Shown here piece by piece: positions 53,944 through 62,060 of a stretch of 64,000 bases of DNA. The DNA is from a phage. The stretch's first letter is position 1; each line of letters begins with the position of its first letter. Location of the stretch: the sequence record PZ445530.1; one strand, written 5' to 3'. The position numbers were made by a program, and so were the translations under genes. The notes under the pieces are model-generated. The model made no database searches. It saw only the letters and a list, made by a program, of their open reading frames with translations, and was not told the origin of the DNA.

Positions 53944-54243
53944 ATGTTTATCCAGGCTAATAATCTTTATTTCTTTGATGGTCAGATCGTAGATGGTGTG
54001 GAAGTGGAGATCACCGGGTGCCCTGGTGGTCAGGCTATGACTTTCCGGAATAATGCCTTTGATGATTCTCATATCGTTATGAGAATGGAAGTTACGAAGC
54101 TGGACGACAAGAAAACACTTATTGACTATTCTGTGAAAGATCATCCAGACTACCACATGATCTATGGTGATTTGTGCATTGTTGACCGTGACAAGGTGGG
54201 CGGCATTGTGATCGCTATTGTGAACGATGTTTTCTCAAACTAA
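53944..54243 (+). CDS. hypothetical protein (99 aa)
   Basis: ATG after caaggagtga. Confidence 0.5.
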   Translation: MFIQANNLYFFDGQIVDGVEVEITGCPGGQAMTFRNNAFDDSHIVMRMEVTKLDDKKTLIDYSVKDHPDYHMIYGDLCIVDRDKVGGIVIAIVNDVFSN

Positions 54244-54260
54244 TTTCAGCAGGTGATTTT

Positions 54261-54611
54261 ATGAAAGTAAAACTATATTACCTTAATGAGCTTAACCCCC
54301 TTGCCCAGGTCCGCGCCCTGGCTAATACCTTGATTTGTGAGAAATCTGTATATTGTGTTGAGCTTAACGCCATGCGTGAACGTCTCAAAGGTGGTTACTT
54401 TGACATCCATGCTGCAATCAACGGCCTGAATATGGAATTTATCCGCTTACGTAACAACAGCCGGAATCTGGCAAGAATGGAACAAGATCCGGCCCACCTT
54501 CGTAAGCTGGTTATTGAAAATCATCTGATGTTCAATGCCGAGGGTGATTATTACCATTTTCACCGCAAACGTTGGTACCGTGGCGGCAATACAAGCAAGA
54601 ATGCAAAATAA
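54261..54611 (+). CDS. hypothetical protein (116 aa)
   Basis: ORF in track. Confidence 0.5.
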   Translation: MKVKLYYLNELNPLAQVRALANTLICEKSVYCVELNAMRERLKGGYFDIHAAINGLNMEFIRLRNNSRNLARMEQDPAHLRKLVIENHLMFNAEGDYYHFHRKRWYRGGNTSKNAK

Positions 54612-54645
54612 GGCCCCTAGCAGGGCCTGCAGCGATATAATCACA

Positions 54646-54680
54646 TAAAGGCTATGCGGTTGCATGGCCTTTATTATTTT
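54646..54680 (+). terminator. putative intrinsic terminator
   Basis: AAAGGCTATGC-GGTT-GCATGGCCTTT imperfect hairpin followed by ATTATTTT. Confidence 0.45.
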
Positions 54681-54729
54681 AGCGTTACAGCGACCCCTAA
54701 GGCGCTTAAAAAATTTTTTAAAGAAGTAC

Positions 54730-54757
54730 TTGCATCAAGCCCTACAGTATGGATAAT
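54730..54757 (+). promoter_or_regulatory. early-type sigma70-like promoter (cassette 9) followed by 5' hairpin
   Basis: TTGCAT - 16 bp - GATAAT; G/C hairpin at 54766-54780; SD taggag. Confidence 0.5.
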
Positions 54758-54813
54758 AGGACGTGTCGGGGGGCGGCCCCCAATCATTAACCGGATAGAT
54801 AGGAGTTAAAACC

Positions 54814-55098
54814 ATGGCTATTGTTACCGCTGGCGATGTAGTAGAAATGGAAGCAAAATACTTAAAAGCGGGTATGCATATCCTACGCAACGATCTTGAA
54901 CTGGTCCTGACAATGGTTGACTATAACCCAGGGCAAGATTATCCAAGTGTTGACTACTTTTTTGAGTATGTTGATGAAGAATTAAAAGAGGATGAGGCTT
55001 ATCAGGGCGAATTCTGTAATTTCTTTTGCTCTGATGAGGTTGTAAAAGTTATCTATCAACCTGGCGTACCTTTCCCGCTGCACGCTATCAATAAATAA
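54814..55098 (+). CDS. hypothetical protein (94 aa)
   Basis: ATG downstream of cassette. Confidence 0.5.
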   Translation: MAIVTAGDVVEMEAKYLKAGMHILRNDLELVLTMVDYNPGQDYPSVDYFFEYVDEELKEDEAYQGEFCNFFCSDEVVKVIYQPGVPFPLHAINK

Positions 55099-55154
55099 AC
55101 CTGGCGGGGCCGAAAAGGCCCCCCAATTATGAAAATAAAGAGAGGCAAATCATC

Positions 55155-55388
55155 ATGATGGAACAAATTAAACGCGCCGAGGCTATTAATGGCAACGTGA
55201 TCTATTTTGTCAGCAAAAACGAAAAAGGCGTACCCTATGCGGCTGTAATAGTACAGCCTGACGGCGATTATTGGTGCACTGTGTACGGCGCTTATTCTTT
55301 TGGGCGTCCAGTGCATGATAAAATTTTGAAAGTAGCGAACCCTACCGGGAAAAATATTACAGCAGAAAAATTTTTTGAAAAGTGTTGA
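55155..55388 (+). CDS. hypothetical protein (77 aa)
   Basis: RBS aaagagagg. Confidence 0.5.
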   Translation: MMEQIKRAEAINGNVIYFVSKNEKGVPYAAVIVQPDGDYWCTVYGAYSFGRPVHDKILKVANPTGKNITAEKFFEKC

Positions 55389-55412
55389 CATGACCTTATA
55401 AGACTGTAGAAT
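55385..55412 (+). promoter_or_regulatory. early-type sigma70-like promoter (cassette 10) followed by 5' hairpin
   Basis: TTGACA - 16 bp - TAGAAT; hairpin GGGGGGC-AACAA-GCCCCCC at 55423-55441; CACCAACCACAAAGAGGATAAAAA leader. Confidence 0.55.
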
Positions 55413-55466
55413 ATAAATCAAAGGGGGGCAACAAGCCCCCCACCAACCACAAAGAGGATAAAAATC

Positions 55467-55646
55467 ATGGCTATTATTGCAAAGACTGAGATCGTAGGCT
55501 TAGATTCTATTCTCCTCGCATATGAGGAAGCTATAGAAATGTATGTGGTTTCCTATGGTGAGTATATTCGTGAATATAAATCTATTGATCTGGCTTTTGA
55601 ATGTTATATTCGCCAGGTAAATAAAGCATATGATGATTATCGTTAA
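55467..55646 (+). CDS. small hypothetical protein (59 aa)
   Basis: ATG at cassette position; one codon below track cutoff. Confidence 0.45.
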   Translation: MAIIAKTEIVGLDSILLAYEEAIEMYVVSYGEYIREYKSIDLAFECYIRQVNKAYDDYR

Positions 55647-55652
55647 AATAGT

Positions 55653-55680
55653 TTGACAACAATTACAAATCGGGTAGAAT
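55653..55680 (+). promoter_or_regulatory. early-type sigma70-like promoter (cassette 11) followed by 5' hairpin
   Basis: TTGACA - 16 bp - TAGAAT; GTATTTCGTAG then hairpin GCGGCA-ATGA-TGCCGC. Confidence 0.55.
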
Positions 55681-55731
55681 GTATTTCGTAGGGCGGCAAT
55701 GATGCCGCTCACAACTAAAAGAGAGATCATC

Positions 55732-55926
55732 ATGGCGCTTAAAAAACTAACAAGCAATACTCGTTGGGATGAAATCGACGGGGAAGTTTACATTTTTGCC
55801 CGTAAACCAGGGGATCAAAAATGGTCAAAGGCTTTTACTTGCCATCCTGCAACAATAGATCTGATAAAAAGTCAAGGACTACGTGAAGCAGTAGCAAGAA
55901 GTTTACTGATCCCTTGTAAAAATTAG
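55732..55926 (+). CDS. small hypothetical protein (64 aa)
   Basis: ATG after aaaagagag; track start 55699 lies inside the leader hairpin. Confidence 0.45.
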   Translation: MALKKLTSNTRWDEIDGEVYIFARKPGDQKWSKAFTCHPATIDLIKSQGLREAVARSLLIPCKN

Positions 55927-55927
55927 T

Positions 55928-55955
55928 TTGACAACAGTCAACAATCTGGTAAAGT
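55928..55955 (+). promoter_or_regulatory. early-type sigma70-like promoter (cassette 12) followed by 5' hairpin
   Basis: TTGACA - 16 bp - TAAAGT; hairpin GCGGGA-ATACT-TCCCGC; leader CCATTAATGAGGGTA shared with cassette 13. Confidence 0.55.
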
Positions 55956-56003
55956 GTACTACATAGCGCGGGAATACTTCCCGCCATTAATGAGGGTAAT
56001 TTA

Positions 56004-56141
56004 ATGAAAACTTTCAACGCAACAGCCTCGACAATTGGTTATATTATTACAGTACAAGCCGTGGATCTGGTAGCAGCAGCAAACAAGATTAAAAAGATGA
56101 TTCCGCCAGGTAGTGAATTTTCCGTTTGGGAAGTAAAATAA
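56004..56141 (+). CDS. small hypothetical protein (45 aa)
   Basis: ATG after tgagggtaattta; below track cutoff. Confidence 0.4.
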   Translation: MKTFNATASTIGYIITVQAVDLVAAANKIKKMIPPGSEFSVWEVK

Positions 56142-56144
56142 ATC

Positions 56145-56172
56145 TTGACAATAATTTATTACTTGATAGACT
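56145..56172 (+). promoter_or_regulatory. early-type sigma70-like promoter (cassette 13)
   Basis: TTGACA - 16 bp - TAGACT; GTATTTCGTAG...CCATTAATGAGGGTA leader duplicated from cassettes 11/12. Confidence 0.55.
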
Positions 56173-56224
56173 GTATTTCGTAGTGCGGGGAAATAAGGCA
56201 ACGCCCATTAATGAGGGTAGAATC

Positions 56225-56329
56225 ATGTTAGAGAAAATTTTCACGGTTGTAGTAGTTGGCCTGGCATTATCGGTTGGATGGGTTGCAACTATGGCTAACA
56301 TGATCCTATCTTCCCACGGTATCGGTTAA
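56225..56329 (+). CDS. small hydrophobic peptide (34 aa)
   Basis: ATG at cassette position; hydrophobic FTVVVVGLALSVGWVATMANMIL. Confidence 0.4.
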   Translation: MLEKIFTVVVVGLALSVGWVATMANMILSSHGIG

Positions 56330-56330
56330 G

Positions 56331-56555
56331 GTGAATCAAATGATCACGAATAAAACAGGTAAAACGGAATTCTTGCGCGGCTTGCAGGTCGGCAAGCCTG
56401 AGATCTGGCATTGCACTAAAACACCACGTGACGAAATGAAAGACTTCACCGCCACGCTGCAACGGGTAAAGATATCCATTACGCAGAAAAAAGCCTTGAT
56501 AGTGGTGGAAGGTGAGATCCCTCAAGCCGTTGTTATAGTTGAGCGTACAGCATAG
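56331..56555 (+). CDS. hypothetical protein (74 aa)
   Basis: RBS aaggtga. Confidence 0.45.
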   Translation: MNQMITNKTGKTEFLRGLQVGKPEIWHCTKTPRDEMKDFTATLQRVKISITQKKALIVVEGEIPQAVVIVERTA

Positions 56556-56646
56556 TTTAATTTATACCGATACCCGAAAATTAACCAACAAAGCATAAAC
56601 AGGCGGTTGCCGCCGCCTTAAACGTAGCAGAAAGAGGATAGATACA

Positions 56647-56880
56647 ATGAAAAAGATGATCGCAGTAGTTGCCCTGGTTCTGGAAGAAGAAATTAAAGCC
56701 ATGCACCATAGCAACAGATTTATTGGTGACGCGCAGGATAATATGAAAGTATGCCGCCATAAAGTTAATGAAGTGCTTAAAGAGTACGGCTATAAAGATC
56801 TTATGATCAAACGTGAGGAAAAATTCCGCTACCGTAACGACCTGGCAAATCGGATTTTTGAAATATACGAATCATTATAA
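56647..56880 (+). CDS. hypothetical protein (77 aa)
   Basis: RBS agaaagaggat. Confidence 0.5.
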   Translation: MKKMIAVVALVLEEEIKAMHHSNRFIGDAQDNMKVCRHKVNEVLKEYGYKDLMIKREEKFRYRNDLANRIFEIYESL

Positions 56881-56898
56881 TTTTTTAACTGAATTATC

Positions 56899-56925
56899 AA
56901 GGGGCTTAGGCCCCTTTCTTTTTGT
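56899..56925 (+). terminator. intrinsic terminator ending the plus-strand small-gene block
   Basis: AAGGGGC-TTAG-GCCCCTT hairpin followed by TCTTTTTG. Confidence 0.6.
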
Positions 56926-57529
56926 CTGCTCTTCTCCTACCATAAACGGCCCTACCTGGCAAGTGGAATAATTGACTAGCCATCAATCCCACATACTGTA
57001 CAAATATACATGGAAAATAACTATTGCATAATTTTTCATTGTGTGGTAGCAAGTCCATTTTTACCCGTTTTCTCTCCCAAAAGTGCACGTAATGCCGCTA
57101 TTGCACAAATTTTAACCTGATGCACATCTCCAATATCTTGTCAACAACTAAAAATCTTTATAAGTCATACACTTACACAGCATCGAAAGCGTGTTCTACG
57201 CGAAAAATCGAGTATAACTATAGCCGCCAGATCTCAGAATTCACGTACGCACGCCATTCTATAGCCTGCAAAGTATTTATTCCAACCACAGAATAACGGA
57301 ATAGTCAATACCTGCATAAAATAATTATTCGTGCAAACTGCATAACATAAATCAGCTCAGGTGTCAACATTTTTCGTAAACAGTCCGAAATTATAACGAT
57401 GAGTTATCATAAACAGAGAAATCTTTAGTCGTCTAATGTTTACTGTACATTACTATACTGACTGGAATCATTAGATGACTAAGAGAAAGATAAGAAATAA
57501 TTAATAATGTAATTATTTTACCTGTAACA

Positions 57530-57791
57530 ATAAGGCAACTATGCAAACGAATGGCATGGCGCGACGGAGTCGCGACATAATATAAAAGCAGTAACCATCA
57601 CCCCCGTGATAGTTTGTCTGCAAACTATTAATCAGATCATAGTTGCCTTGTATTTAGTTAATCATGACATAACAAGCAAGGCAACTATAGATCTGCTAAT
57701 AGTTGCCCTGCTTTTATATTATGTCATGCTAATTATAATCAGTGCGATTATTGTCATGTATAATTATTGTCATGCAAACGAATGGCATGGC
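57530..57791. repeat. repeat cluster: 20-nt perfect direct repeat ATGCAAACGAATGGCATGGC (57541-57560, 57772-57791) and four alternating AGTTGCC/GGCAACT copies
   Basis: Direct repeat 231 bp apart; AGTTGCC-family at about 57534, 57641, 57680, 57701; palindrome CGCGAC-GGA-GTCGCG at 57562-57576. Confidence 0.6.
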
Positions 57792-57800
57792 TGATTATCG

Positions 57801-57890
57801 GTGTGTAAACAGTCAATCATGTAAATGGTTAGCATGTGAACAATCAGGAATGTAAACAATCCAGTGTGTAAACTAATAGGTGTGTAAAAG
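57801..57890. repeat. iteron-like array: six copies of TGTAAAC-like heptamer at 15-16 bp spacing
   Basis: TGTAAAC 57804, TGTAAAT 57820, TGTGAAC 57836, TGTAAAC 57851, TGTAAAC 57867, TGTAAAA 57883. Confidence 0.6.
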
Positions 57891-58439
57891 TGTCATGTTG
57901 TGTCAGTTAGGTCACATTATGTCAGACAAGTTTTTCTCCTCTTTGTCAAGTGCTGCATGAAAAATTTACAAACTGGTATGGTAGCATTTTTGCGGCCCTG
58001 TTTACATTCAGTAATGTATGTATAATCCTTGTTGTGTGGGCGTTTAGACGTCTAGACGGTTGGAAGTCCACAGGTCAATATCTAATCTATCGGCTGCTAA
58101 CTATATCCCACACAAATAGCAAGAAATATGATTGTTATATGCGTAAACTGTAACTCATGTTATCAATCCCTGTATGGATCGCCAGTGGTGCGCATAATGG
58201 GTATTATGTTAAATTGCCCGTAATGATAACTATTCTCACAATGATAGGTATTCTCATTCATCCACATAAAATAGGTTGCAAATGTTGTGCCACTGTGTGA
58301 ACGGCCTGGCCTATTAATTTGCCTCACTGCCTTGATATTTGAGAATTGTTATAAGAATGAGAAGTATTCCCATTTCGTCCGCCTGGCAGCACTCCTGTAG
58401 GTCAGGTCAAAATCGTGGTAGAATTGGGCCTGTTCAGAT

Positions 58440-58700
58440 ATTTCTGGCTGACTCTTCAGGTCTGTGTGGGAAAAGCCAACCTCTCCGGCGGGGCAGGGGG
58501 TCATGACGGGAAAATTGCAGGTCAATTAAAAATTTACGTGGTGTATGAAGCGCTCTTCAGGTAAGGCATGTATTATGGGATGAAACCCGCTTCAGGCAAT
58601 GATATTTGTGGGTGTGATATTTGCTGGAAAGCCAGATATGACGGGACTCCCGGCGGGGATGGGGTAGTACAGACAGGGAAAATATGAGAATGTAGTTGGG
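58440..58700. repeat. degenerate ~70-bp direct repeats (CTTCAGG...GTGGG...GAAA(A)GCCA...CTCC(C)GGCGGGG...ATGACGGGA) in ORF-free region
   Basis: Ordered shared blocks about 58446-58515 and 58570-58680; no ORF of 60 codons or more on either strand 58154-58776. Confidence 0.45.
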
Positions 58701-59360
58701 GAAATTGATCAGACAGGTAGAGTATGGAATATGTTACAAGTATGTTAAATATGGAGGTTGAATATCTGTAGGATTTGTGTGTAAAATCAAAGACTTAAGG
58801 GGTGTTGTGGTATTTTCTATAAATAATTCAAGTTTAATAGGCAATATTTGTCTCTATCCGTTTTGTGTGGTAAACAGATTCAGATTAGATTGGTTTACAA
58901 GTGTATACATAATATACAAATTAAAGATACAAGAAACCCCCCTCCCCCCTTCGGCTACCATTCACCTTTTCCTCTGACTGGTACTTAAACACTTATTCAG
59001 ACTCTTCAGGTTATCACCCATATATCATATGGCAGTGACTGGTGTCCTCCGGCCCCTCTTTCGTCACCCGTCCGCTTCGCCATGCTAATGCCATAGCCAA
59101 TGGTTCGGTTGTTCACCCTGTTCACTCAGGTGTATCTCCATACCCCTTCAAACCGAAGAGAACAGAAAACCCGAATTACTCGGTAAAAGAAAAGAGAAGA
59201 ACTTAATTTTATCAGGATAGGCAAGAATGTCAAGGCATGACTGCTCACTAAACAAGCAAACAGTCATGTGTGGAAGGTAAGTGATTGTGGTGGTGGGAAA
59301 TTTAGTTGAAAGATGTGTTATAGGTGCTTCCAGCACTTTAGCCGGGCAGCTAATTGTGTG

Positions 59361-59576
59361 TCAGTCCAGCGGTTCATCCTCTACTTCACTGAAATCAATG
59401 TTCATGGTCTCTTCCCAACCATCGATCTCAGCACAAGAGTGGAGTTCTTTAGGGTTTACTCCCAAAGCCTCAGCAACAGAGTCTATATTTAACACCTCTG
59501 GCAGGTATGATTCATCGAATTCAAGGTAAATCAGGCCACGAGTGTTGTCAGCTCCACCAAATATTTCTATCTTCAT
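59361..59576 (-). CDS. small acidic protein (71 aa)
   Basis: GAGGAG RBS upstream of ATG on minus strand. Confidence 0.5.
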   Translation of the reverse strand: MKIEIFGGADNTRGLIYLEFDESYLPEVLNIDSVAEALGVNPKELHSCAEIDGWEETMNIDFSEVEDEPLD

Positions 59577-59697
59577 GAAATCTCCTCTGGAAATGAGAGT
59601 GTGAACAGGGTTTTATACGTTCCGATGCACAGGAATTATGCACGTTTGCCTCTTCAGGCCATGCTTTAGCATGAGGAACCTGTGTGGGCTCGGTGCT

Positions 59698-59910
59698 TCA
59701 TAGTCTACCACCCCTGAACTCTTCGTGCTCAGGCATAATAGAGAACCAGATATCTACGATGTCTTCCCACGTTAGGTCATCAGCCTCAGGATCTACCTGG
59801 AGCGAAGATGGAGAATCTTCAGAATCTAAGTTTTCCTCTTTCACTGGCTCAGCCAAGGGACATATAGTCACTCCTTTGGATGTCTCTTCAGATGCATGTG
59901 TGTTTATCAT
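59698..59910 (-). CDS. small acidic protein (70 aa)
   Basis: ORF in track with upstream GGGTGG. Confidence 0.45.
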   Translation of the reverse strand: MINTHASEETSKGVTICPLAEPVKEENLDSEDSPSSLQVDPEADDLTWEDIVDIWFSIMPEHEEFRGGRL

Positions 59911-60270
59911 GTTCCACCCGTGAGTATTCCGGCAACAGCCGCTATGGACGTAATGATCATCAGGATCACCACTAAAACTTCGGACAATGTTCTCATTGTG
60001 TACTCCATATTCTACAAACTATGTGTGGATACTATCACTGGATCGGTAATGTGTCAACAGAAACGCCGCGAGGGTTTGGTTAAAATCCGAGCGTATGGTG
60101 ATTTGGGTCAAAACGGACGTGCGTTCTCGCTACGCTCGAAATACGGAGTTGTTTGTAGGGAGCTCTTAAACGCTCTGTAATGAGATTAACTGCCCAAGGT
60201 ATGCAATCGTGCACCAGATAAAGAAAAGGACGCCACAGAGCGTCCTAGGTGTCTTAAATTTGATATTTTG

Positions 60271-60582
60271 CTATACCCACGAGGGCTTATCAAGGTTGGA
60301 GTAGCTGAAAGGTGTCAAAAGGTGACTGTCAAAATCTCTCAAACTATCCAAATCTTTTTCCTCGTCCTGACACCATCTGTGCCTACATTTGTTGTTGTAG
60401 TGCATGGAATGCATAGCGTTCTGCAACTTAACAGGCACAAGTGATTCAGGAGTAGATAGTATTGTTGGGTATGCCAGAACCACCTCAAACAGTGGAAACA
60501 CATCGAAACTAAAGTCTACCTCTGCAGAGGTTGATGGCATGTAGGAGTATTTAGCCGCCTTTGTAGACATAATCCACCTCAC
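60271..60582 (-). CDS. hypothetical protein (103 aa)
   Basis: RBS gaggtgg. Confidence 0.5.
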   Translation of the reverse strand: MRWIMSTKAAKYSYMPSTSAEVDFSFDVFPLFEVVLAYPTILSTPESLVPVKLQNAMHSMHYNNKCRHRWCQDEEKDLDSLRDFDSHLLTPFSYSNLDKPSWV

Positions 60583-60911
60583 ACAGGTTTGATAATACCT
60601 TCACCGAATAGCTCTTCGTATCTAATCTTGTCCGGATCCCACTCCTGGATAATTTCGAAGACAATATCCAACCCAGGAACAATCACTTCTCCAGTGTCAA
60701 GCTTAGCAAGAACAAAACCGGAAGGTTGAATGGTTTCCCAGTTACGGCGATCAGAATAAAATACTTCGAAAATATCACCAACCTCAATCCGTTTCTGTTG
60801 CTCAAGATGCTCAAGGTTCTCTTTCATACGGATGCAGCGTATTTTTCGTGCAGGCCATAGACCACCTGCATCACGTTCATTCAATTCTTTTACAGTGATC
60901 GGTATACCCAT
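60579..60911 (-). CDS. hypothetical protein (110 aa)
   Basis: RBS aaggag; overlap with downstream gene. Confidence 0.5.
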   Translation of the reverse strand: MGIPITVKELNERDAGGLWPARKIRCIRMKENLEHLEQQKRIEVGDIFEVFYSDRRNWETIQPSGFVLAKLDTGEVIVPGLDIVFEIIQEWDPDKIRYEELFGEGIIKPV

Positions 60912-60938
60912 CTCAAATCTCCTTCATAGATAGTAAAA

Positions 60939-60965
60939 AGAGGGGCCCAAGCCCCTCTTTTTGTC
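60939..60965 (-). terminator. intrinsic terminator (hairpin flanked by A- and T-runs, potentially bidirectional)
   Basis: AGAGGGGC-CCAA-GCCCCTCT with AAAA upstream and TTTTT downstream. Confidence 0.55.
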
Positions 60966-60966
60966 A

Positions 60967-61272
60967 TTATTCTACAGAGCGTTTGAACAGAATGTCTGCC
61001 TCGGACATGTGCTCAACCTCTTCTTCGATTTTAGCTCGACGTTTTTCAGCCTCATAGCGAATATCGAACTCGGTAGCCACCAGAGATTTGATGAATTTAG
61101 GAGAATACAGGTGATCCTGCTTCTCAACGAGAATGATATCCTTAATGGCATCTTTCAGATCTTTAATCTGAAGTTGGAGTTCCACCAGTTCTTCGATTGT
61201 CTTGCGAAGGCGATCACGCTCTGCAGTGTCAGAAGGAAGAGAGGTGAACAGTTCAACTTTAGATTTAGCCAT
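60967..61272 (-). CDS. hypothetical coiled-coil-like protein (101 aa)
   Basis: RBS aaggagac. Confidence 0.5.
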   Translation of the reverse strand: MAKSKVELFTSLPSDTAERDRLRKTIEELVELQLQIKDLKDAIKDIILVEKQDHLYSPKFIKSLVATEFDIRYEAEKRRAKIEEEVEHMSEADILFKRSVE

Positions 61273-61300
61273 AGTAAGAGTCTCCTTATGTTGTTTTAAA

Positions 61301-61553
61301 TTAACGTTCTACAAAAATACCGTTCAGTTCAATAACCAGGAATTTCTGGTCTTCACTGTCGTCTCGTGCCAGCACCTCACAGACGTATCGGTCATCTCCA
61401 TCATCATCGCAGTCAAATACAAGACTGAGGACTTTATCATGATAAACCTTCGCCACTACCGCCTCGTAAGTATTGCCGATTGTGAATCCAAGATAATCTC
61501 CGATGCATTTGACAACAACATGGTCGCCAGCATTCAAGTCAATCTTCGTCATT
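61301..61553 (-). CDS. hypothetical protein (84 aa)
   Basis: ATG at 61553 preceded by aggagcg; internal start of track ORF 61301-61618. Confidence 0.45.
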
Positions 61554-61707
61554 ACTGCGCTCCTTGGGTAATAATACTGTATGTAAAACTTTAACCAGAG
61601 ATGTGAATAACGCCCCAAAACACACCGATAGCGCTAAAACAGACAAGGCCATCATTAAAGCTTCAGTAAAATCAGTCACTCCTCACCTCTTGTTAGTCAC
61701 TATACTG

Positions 61708-61971
61708 TCATTTATCCTTGCCGTCAAGAACTTTTTTAAATCTTTCAGGGATATCGCCTGTTCTTAGATAGCTCATGACCTCACAAGGTTCCCACTTGAA
61801 TTTCTTACAAAGCAGGGCGGCTGAGATTGTTTCATTGCGAAAAGAAAGGATATTAATATCCCATTCTGAGAACCCCAACTTCCGAAGGGTAGCTACAGAA
61901 ATCCTCACCGCAACCCAGCAGCAAAAACATGCAACAAACGCCACTGCTATAACCCACATCAGGATGTTCAT
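61708..61971 (-). CDS. small membrane protein (87 aa)
   Basis: RBS gaggtg; N-terminal hydrophobic MNILMWVIAVAFVACFCCWVAV. Confidence 0.5.
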   Translation of the reverse strand: MNILMWVIAVAFVACFCCWVAVRISVATLRKLGFSEWDINILSFRNETISAALLCKKFKWEPCEVMSYLRTGDIPERFKKVLDGKDK

Positions 61972-62060
61972 ACAAGCACCTCACTGAAATACAAGACACA
62001 GTGTTAAGGTTACAGACCAGCAAATAATTAACAGTGCCGTTGCAACCTTGGCAAGATTTA

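Follow-up and report, generated by a model that had tools for sequence, protein, structure and literature searches.

Among described systems, the concatemer junction of phage T7 comes closest to the locus analyzed here, a 2.4-kb region (positions 56926 to 59360) within a 64,000-nucleotide stretch of phage DNA (PZ445530.1; hereafter the window, meaning the whole stretch numbered from its first base). The T7 reference junction comprises the SRL and SRR heptamer arrays, the promoters phiOR and phiOL, and a hairpin processing intermediate, the hairpin DNA containing the terminal repeat (PMC4281155). Reading the T7 ends directly, we found that the 160-bp terminal repeat is succeeded at positions 175–341 by CCTAAAG units with a 13-bp period and that a looser set lies before the right repeat. 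Plasmids that carry a T7 origin together with the concatemer junction are packaged, to judge from the title of Chung & Hinkle 1990 (cited in PMC13236587). Within the subfamily Vequintavirinae, two papers report terminal repeats of 458/459 bp (PMC7471380, PMC6563267), and the available parts of the earlier reports on Gotham, EdH4, HdK5 and KPP-1 give the length of the direct terminal repeat (DTR) only, plus coordinates for KPP-1; the DTR as such was already known from a few subfamily members. In rV5 the counterpart of our region lies between genes 163 and 164, where the genome paper shows a grey box labelled "non-coding" with no function assigned (PMC3606486). Searches of the open-access literature returned no description of the identity of this box with the DTR, of cut-site motifs, of T7-like flanking arrays or of a covarying palindrome.

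P1 pac and lambda cosB offer a further comparison: terminase recognizes several short motifs there, hexamers in pac and R sites in cosB, which lie in phase next to the cut. P1 packaging starts at pac and is headful, and the ends of lambda DNA are cohesive. The locus also resembles iteron origins (plasmid, lambda-like) in that several direct repeats of the same orientation lie beside AT-rich DNA and dyad symmetries, and a preliminary description of the window, made from the letters of the DNA, had preferred an iteron or initiator-binding origin, naming a terminus or packaging signal as its alternative. The alternative is the one that we find supported, with virion ends mapping at 57925 and 58383. 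We estimate a probability of roughly three in four that the chromosome ends (concatemer junction) of a T7-type, unit-length genome with short exact direct terminal repeats lie here, together with their end-formation signals.

Mapping of the chromosome ends

Because 122 phage records, nearly all of them Escherichia phages of the genus Vequintavirus, match the 2.5 kb around the region at 90–99% identity, the source of the window is, by sequence match, a Vequintavirus (an rV5-like E. coli myophage of ~137 kb). Deposited genomes of these phages were mostly opened at arbitrary positions. In Gotham, EdH4 and HdK5 (Vequintavirinae) the first 459 bases equal the last 459 exactly, and this repeat, both copies of which are annotated as repeat_region in Gotham, is the same element as window positions 58383 to 57925 (94–96% identity). 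One or the other of these positions is also the exact start or end of eight related GenBank records: HdK5, Gotham and ECP2309 stop at 57925, Pr121LW and EcoIv14a_Aya start there, and EdH4, bov11CS3 and bov25_3 start at 58383. Since the record ends, the exact 459-bp identity of prefix and suffix, and the lengths in the literature agree, we conclude from sequence comparison that 57925–58383 is the DTR of the genus Vequintavirus, of which the window carries a single collapsed copy. Homology thus places the ends of the packaged chromosome at 57924/57925 and 58383/58384, enclosing a 459-bp exact repeat, and the eight records with identical end coordinates lend indirect support to fixed, not circularly permuted, ends.

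The DTR and the elements beside its two edges are as follows (window coordinates).

57925–58383, no strand assigned: direct terminal repeat, 459 bp; exact prefix and suffix in Gotham, EdH4 and HdK5, placed by homology at both ends of the virion DNA.

58377–58390, minus strand: left-end cut site TGCCA^GGCGGAC; virion DNA would begin at the G of GRCGGAC (window 58383).

57890–57924, plus strand: four TGTCA-like motifs (TGTCA three times, GGTCA once) in a ~10-bp phase that was found again in most genus members examined.

57804–57889, plus strand: six TGTAAAC-like heptamers at 15–16 bp spacing; the most variable part of the region, with a copy number that varies among relatives and a phase that is kept.

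57772–57791, plus strand: copy 2 of a perfect 20-nt direct repeat, ATGCAAACGAATGGCATGGC.

57574–57725, minus strand: multi-branched palindromic element, 152 nt, recognized by inverted-repeat detection, folding and counterparts in other genera.

57560–57574, no strand assigned: small hairpin CGCGAC-GGA-GTCGCG adjoining the palindromic element, with a weak nhmmer match to GGCGCGAGCGTAGCGAGCGAC in KPP-1.

57541–57560, plus strand: copy 1 of the 20-nt direct repeat, which begins with the heptamer-like TGCAAAC and flanks the palindromic element.

58384–58730, plus strand: G-rich degenerate repeat modules adjoining the other DTR edge on its outside; GC skew +0.25 to +0.58.

The virion orientation is the reverse complement of the window. 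Read in that direction, the left end consists of the DTR (58383 to 57925), the TGTCA-like motifs, the TGTAAAC array and copy 2 of the 20-nt repeat, and continues with the 152-nt palindrome, the CGCGAC/GTCGCG hairpin and copy 1; at the right end, the G-rich modules stand just before the right copy of the DTR. The preliminary description had missed the terminal-repeat boundaries, the four TGTCA-like motifs and the 18-nt inverted repeat that closes the palindrome.

Edge motifs in related genera

The edges of the repeat in the window read TGTCA^GACAAG at 57924/57925 and CGTCCGCC^TGGCAG at 58383/58384. We compared eight sequences from three genera (Vequintavirus, Mydovirus and Seunavirus), and in all eight TG(C/T)(C/T)A^GRCGGAC occurs exactly once, at 433 bp upstream of the right-edge motif in Vequintavirus and 489–491 bp upstream in Mydovirus and Seunavirus. 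The right-edge motif, CTTGACA-N(about 18)-TTGT(C/G)^T, is likewise present once per sequence with fixed spacing. The best-conserved blocks of the eight-sequence alignment lie inside the DTR, and one of them, CTTGACA-N-GAG..TTGT(C/G)^T, reaches its edge.

These motifs coincide with mapped ends. For the Klebsiella phage KPP-1 (Mydovirus), a 514-bp DTR of the T7-type class is reported, determined by coverage and PhageTerm (PMC9862379). That repeat lies in a ~1.8-kb gap, poor in open reading frames (ORFs), between convergent gene blocks, and its ends fall on GRCGGAC and CTTGACA..TTGT; in PVP-SE1 (Seunavirus) the homologous position is occupied by a convergent gap of 2.2 kb without ORFs. With the KPP-1 gap as query, Mydovirus and Seunavirus records were retrieved at 60–93% identity, and a profile of the Vequintavirus region gave weak, collinear, reverse-strand nhmmer matches to KPP-1 (E = 0.04–4.5). 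TG(C/T)(C/T)A^GRCGGAC begins exactly at the experimentally reported DTR start in both Vequintavirus and Mydovirus. Because two independent experimental mappings land on homologous motifs, there is strong evidence that the edge motifs are end-forming sites.

The interior of the DTR contains cross-genus conserved blocks at 58186–58211 and at 57925–57971 (the latter with CTTGACA), as well as three copies of AATGAnAAnTATTC(T/C)CA. The block at 58186–58211, which on the minus strand reads ATTTAACATAATAC(A/C)C(G/A)TTAT(A/G)CGCACCAC, is the best-conserved sequence across Vequintavirus, Mydovirus and Seunavirus, and in Vequintavirus it holds a small dyad, CATAAT-N4-ATTATG. Motifs of the type AATGA(G/T)AA..ATT..CA recur inside the terminal repeats of three phage groups, represented by the window (58222–58256 and 58356–58372), the KPP-1 sequence (2414–2467) and BME3 (55–71 and 250–266), and they may be a shared protein-binding site.

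BME3 (Escherichia phage, Justusliebigvirus, PP239276) was considered as a fourth lineage and not used, the record containing Ns and its annotated DTR being offset by 73 nt from a 342-bp identity of prefix and suffix. Its layout is similar, with an array of CAACAAATAG at 343–410, beside what is presumed to be the edge of the repeat, and a 15-nt inverted repeat without mismatches (625–639 / 757–771, 117-nt spacer), although its true ends are uncertain.

Elements beside the left end

Six TGTAAAC-like heptamers had been noted in the preliminary description, and the array was recovered in full: TGTAAAC at 57804, TGTAAAT at 57820, TGTGAAC at 57835, TGTAAAC at 57851 and 57867, and TGTAAAA at 57883, with successive spacings of 16, 15, 16, 16 and 16 bp. 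As a test, we made 60 dinucleotide-preserving shuffles of 56900–59400 and looked in each for chains of any heptamer repeated, as one-mismatch copies, every 14–17 bp. The longest chain in any shuffle had three members, compared with the six observed, and we conclude that the array is non-random, far above chance. Alignment with 13 relatives showed 64–70% column identity across the array and 120 inserted alignment columns; the number of recognizable units ranged from 1 to 9, and the 15–16 bp spacing was kept wherever several remained. Absence of the repeats from related phages, which would have counted against the earlier account, was not observed within the genus; the heptamers are genus-specific.

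Between the heptamers and the DTR, the TGTCA-like motifs lie 34, 24, 15 and 5 bp from the terminal-repeat edge, and the last of them is part of an odd palindrome, TGTCA^GACA, at the cut. The edge sequence on this side is essentially invariant among the 13 relatives. Short motifs in helical phase beside a cleavage point recall P1 pac and lambda cosB, from which the locus differs in that the product is an exact terminal repeat made by two cuts 459 bp apart and in that no methylation sites or IHF site were identified here. The perfect 20-nt direct repeat at 57541 and 57772, another observation of the preliminary description that stood, is present in two copies in 13 of the 14 genus members examined.

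The four GGCAACT/AGTTGCC copies and the CGCGAC/GTCGCG palindrome noted earlier are also present, and the copies proved to be the stems of one branched palindrome. Its closing stem is an 18-nt perfect inverted repeat (57574–57591 / 57708–57725), and its interior consists of a long hairpin, formed from the GGCAACTAT/ATAGTTGCC copies, plus a 9-bp side hairpin at 57593–57614. It folds far better than shuffled sequence, both as single-stranded DNA (ssDNA; z = −8.4) and as minus-strand RNA (−79.2 kcal/mol, z = −12). Counterparts with a perfect closing repeat occur in every other lineage compared, 220–430 bp from the same DTR edge and with spacers of 116–217 nt. The closing arms are GACATAATATAAAAGCAG in Vequintavirus, AGCGACACAATAACACGGGAG in Mydovirus, GACACTATAACACGAGAG in PVP-SE1, GCGACACAATAACACGGGG in GAP31, GCGACACAATAACACGAGGG in 4MG and GCGACACTATAACACGAGGG in EspYZU12. 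These 18–21-nt arms are perfectly complementary in three genera while their sequence differs, both arms changing together, and compensatory changes between genera are seen in the inner hairpins as well.

Insertions were seen in and around this element. In rV5, PDX and WM an extra insert of ~30 bp, ACACCCGAAGGGGTGACCAAAGGTCACC, containing two small hairpins, lies just outside the palindrome (window 57700–57760), and the central hairpin of rV5 has, in addition, a 33-nt insert in its loop; the stems tolerate loop insertions.

Elements on the right side

Outside the other DTR edge, the preliminary description had reported degenerate ~70-bp repeats at 58440–58700. These do not form a 70-bp tandem array; instead, the segment contains degenerate modules, namely CTCTTCAGG, CCGGCGGGG twice (165 bp apart), ATGACGGGA twice, (A/G)TGATATTTG twice and CAGACAGG twice, along with three copies of GACTCTTCAGGT at 58450, 58551 and 59000. 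The first module is partly missing in most relatives, and a TGATATTT pair also appears in the weak KPP-1 alignment. No E. coli (host-derived) match to 58384–59360 was found. The remaining elements of the region and its left border are as follows.

58900–59360, no strand assigned: non-coding segment of 460 bp, function unexplained; median identity ~98.7%, against ~96% for the adjacent genes (119 records).

59206–59233, minus strand: near-consensus sigma-70-like promoter, TTGACA-16-TAAAAT with an upstream TG, directed toward the DTR; a pattern match (11/12).

56926–57540, no strand assigned: AT-rich non-coding spacer, 87–97% conserved within the genus, with more C than G on the plus strand; no element identified.

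56899–56916, plus strand: intrinsic terminator, AAGGGGCTTAGGCCCCTT followed by a T-run, at the end of the left plus-strand small-gene block; the same site is annotated as a terminator in Alma, EdH4 and HdK5.

The sequence around the promoter match (59200–59249) is 100% identical in the 13 relatives.

Model and alternative explanations

Exact direct terminal repeats, short and with fixed ends, are not the only likeness to T7. In both, an array of 7-bp units lies at the inner edge of the left repeat (CCTAAAG every 13 bp in T7; TGTAAAC every 15–16 bp plus TGTCA every 10 bp here), a second, looser repeat cluster precedes the right copy (here 58384–58730), an inverted repeat or hairpin is found near the repeat, and on the right-end side a promoter faces the junction (phiOR in T7; 59233 here), although arrays like SRL and SRR describe T7 and are not proven as class-defining. 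The two loci share no sequence similarity, and the phage here is a 137-kb myovirus for which we know of no single-subunit RNA polymerase, so that the link between T7 RNA polymerase pausing and packaging is not simply transferable. The repeat is also about three times longer than that of T7, the junction lies inside a 2.4-kb gene-free gap, and the palindrome (152 nt, branched) is far larger than anything in the T7 left end.

Following the T7 paradigm, replication would produce head-to-tail concatemers with one copy of the repeat per junction, terminase would cut at the two conserved edge motifs, and the repeat would be duplicated during processing. Their position and the analogy to the CCTAAAG units, and to the P1 pac hexamers and lambda cosB R sites, suggest that the TGTCA motifs and the TGTAAAC array at the left end, and the G-rich modules at the right end, could be scaffolds on which proteins bind and by which the packaging machinery finds the junction. 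More speculatively, the branched palindrome, 200–350 bp inside the left end, might act as a fold-back hairpin that primes duplication of the repeat, a role that has been proposed for the hairpin intermediate of T7 infection. A tentative proposal, which we hold to be doubtful, is that it works as an ssDNA structure: as concatemers are processed, the neighboring terminal repeat would be copied from it, the element serving as a fold-back primer or as a nick-and-hairpin site; such use would itself keep the arms identical, and, if the proposal were true, rV5-like myophages would provide a conserved, sequence-defined model of terminal-repeat duplication, a step not settled even in T7. In a variant of this idea the palindrome may be a phage replication origin. 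Another speculative role would be that of a two-way barrier excluding convergent transcription from the junction. Transcription of both flanking gene blocks converges on it, and the left block has a strong terminator at its end (56899–56916).

If the chromosome-end reading is correct, it gives a function to a 2.4-kb "non-coding" box that is unannotated in more than 100 Vequintavirus genomes and marks the true ends of their chromosomes. Known ends and cis-signals matter for genome orientation, for annotation, and for rebooting or engineering therapeutic-candidate phages from synthetic DNA. They also bear on transduction risk, generalized transduction being less likely with fixed-end than with headful packaging. 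The cut-site motifs would let ends be predicted from sequence alone in at least three genera, and experiments on terminase recognition and terminal-repeat duplication would have concrete candidates in the phased repeats and the covarying palindrome.

Several observations weigh against this reading. No protein is known to bind the heptamers or the TGTCA motifs. The heptamer array is reduced to one or two recognizable units in PDX, FFH2 and WM, and it is absent in Mydovirus and Seunavirus, including KPP-1, though the rest of the architecture is retained there; for these reasons the array cannot be a universally required signal. Unlike in T7, transcription of the genes next to each end runs outward, toward that end. 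The end positions come from relatives, the DTR of the window itself being assigned through homology of 94–96%, and a 2026 paper, working with an assembly from a mixed cocktail, reports PhageTerm calls of headful packaging with partial permutation in another Vequintavirus (PMC13211470). Homology of the palindrome across genera consists of position, architecture and 12/18 arm identity, nhmmer by itself giving E = 4.5, and its inner hairpin with the following T-run is annotated as a terminator in phage Alma; the role of the palindrome is conjecture.

A replication origin, with the heptamers as iterons or the AT-rich palindrome as the unwinding or initiator site, is unlikely in our estimate, and it could coexist with a terminal-repeat function. 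T7 secondary origins adjoin its concatemer junction, and T7-type origins are promoter-dependent. Consistent with an origin, the promoter at 59233 is directed into the region, regularly spaced repeats lie beside a large and very stable palindrome, GC content is 0.30–0.37 across 57300–57900, and the packaging of T7 plasmids, going by the title mentioned above, needed origin and junction together. GC skew changes sign within the region (+0.4 to +0.58 at 58500–58900, −0.2 to −0.3 at 56900–57300), and the GC/AT-skew search for an origin in the rV5 paper found changes at 104425–105475, which is this region; however, its authors ascribed them to a switch in transcription direction (PMC3606486), and we likewise rejected GC skew as an origin indicator because it is confounded by that switch. 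Moreover, the initiator-binding origin preferred by the preliminary description is not supported, the locus departing from iteron origins in the size, helical phasing and conservation of the repeat unit and in lacking both a neighboring initiator gene and a perfect DnaA box. The repeat core is 7 bp at a spacing of 15–16 bp (~1.5 helical turns), as opposed to iterons of 17–22 bp in helical phase, and its copy number is unstable, from ~1 to 9 in close relatives, with the array missing in sister genera. There is no initiator-like gene next to the region: none of the ten proteins encoded in the flanks reached the curated cutoff for a Pfam domain, and their PHROG families comprise nine with no known function and one transcriptional regulator, encoded at a distance of 1.6 kb. 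Nor is there a perfect DnaA box, and one-mismatch matches largely overlap the heptamers and form no meaningful cluster.

We also consider it improbable that the region is a non-coding RNA (ncRNA) or transcription-control locus, in which the palindrome would be a structured RNA or a two-way terminator or insulator and a non-coding transcript, started by the promoter at 59233, would cross the DTR and end at the hairpin and T-run at 57614–57574. Beyond its strong minus-strand RNA fold and the compensatory changes in its stems across genera, the palindrome folds 7–13 kcal/mol better on the minus-equivalent strand than on the complement in 8 of 8 sequences. However, since both strands of any perfect DNA palindrome fold well, such scores cannot separate an RNA function from a DNA function, and within the genus the substitutions that bear on strand preference were about evenly split (5 G-U versus 4 A-C). 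Terminator-like hairpins with T-runs occur on both strands, including the one annotated in Alma, and the near-consensus promoter is fully conserved, but promoter-like matches as a whole were not above chance (13 found versus 9.7 ± 2.4 expected). RNA that reaches the junction from one flank or the other would be rich in C and poor in G, resembling Rho-loading sites, and Rho-dependent termination may shield the junction. Against an ncRNA, an Rfam 15 scan of 54000–62000 (E ≤ 1) gave no match within 56926–59360, and the RNA fold of the ultra-conserved 58900–59200 was not better than that of shuffles (z = −1.1). A tRNA/tmRNA scan of the window found none.

A functionless spacer, made of decayed genes and slippage-prone simple repeats between convergent operons, is by far the least credible explanation and is contradicted by the conservation data. 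The heptamer array, being the least conserved part and rich in indels, would fit it, as would the small indels scattered through the region in relatives and the broken ORFs. Most of the region, however, is at least as conserved as the adjacent genes, the edge motifs, the repeat-internal blocks and the palindrome are kept across three genera, the mapped virion ends fall here, and equivalent gaps of 1.8–2.2 kb exist in KPP-1 and PVP-SE1.

Coding status and neighboring genes

The region had been described as 2.4 kb free of ORFs between convergent small-gene blocks. The setting is as described, annotated relatives showing a block of small plus-strand genes on the left and a block of small minus-strand genes on the right, and no ORF of at least 60 codons occurs across 57089–57605 or 58154–58776. 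Literally ORF-free the region is not, since it contains five mechanical ORFs of 60–67 codons, all with GTG starts; non-coding it is, because these ORFs are broken in relatives and lack codon-position bias. All five are interrupted in some to most of the 13 relatives (those at 56906–57088 and 57120–57296 in most), and their variable sites show no third-position bias. In contrast, a control gene at 59361–59576 is intact in 14 of 14 genomes, and 12 of its 16 variable sites are third codon positions. The alignment led us to reject coding potential for all of the mechanical ORFs.

A DNA similarity search with the non-coding sequence of the window gave no match outside the genus; the relationship to other genera emerged only by way of KPP-1 and the weak nhmmer matches. 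A flanking 71-aa protein, used as a handle to other genera, had matches confined to the genus. The last gene before the region (56647–56880) is labelled "DNA translocase (FtsK)" in some records, despite encoding 77–87 aa. It matches only the C-terminal half (67–139 of 139) of PHROG 12277, whose function is unknown; the product of the rV5 version is 139 aa, and counterparts lie at 2718–2981 and 121–384 in the sequences of two relatives. The FtsK label is probably a propagated error on a variable or truncated gene. Finally, nineteen "Campylobacter phage" records (MG0656xx; host Campylobacter jejuni) are 92–98% identical to E. coli vequintaviruses over the region, and their host labels may be wrong, or the sequences may be contaminants.

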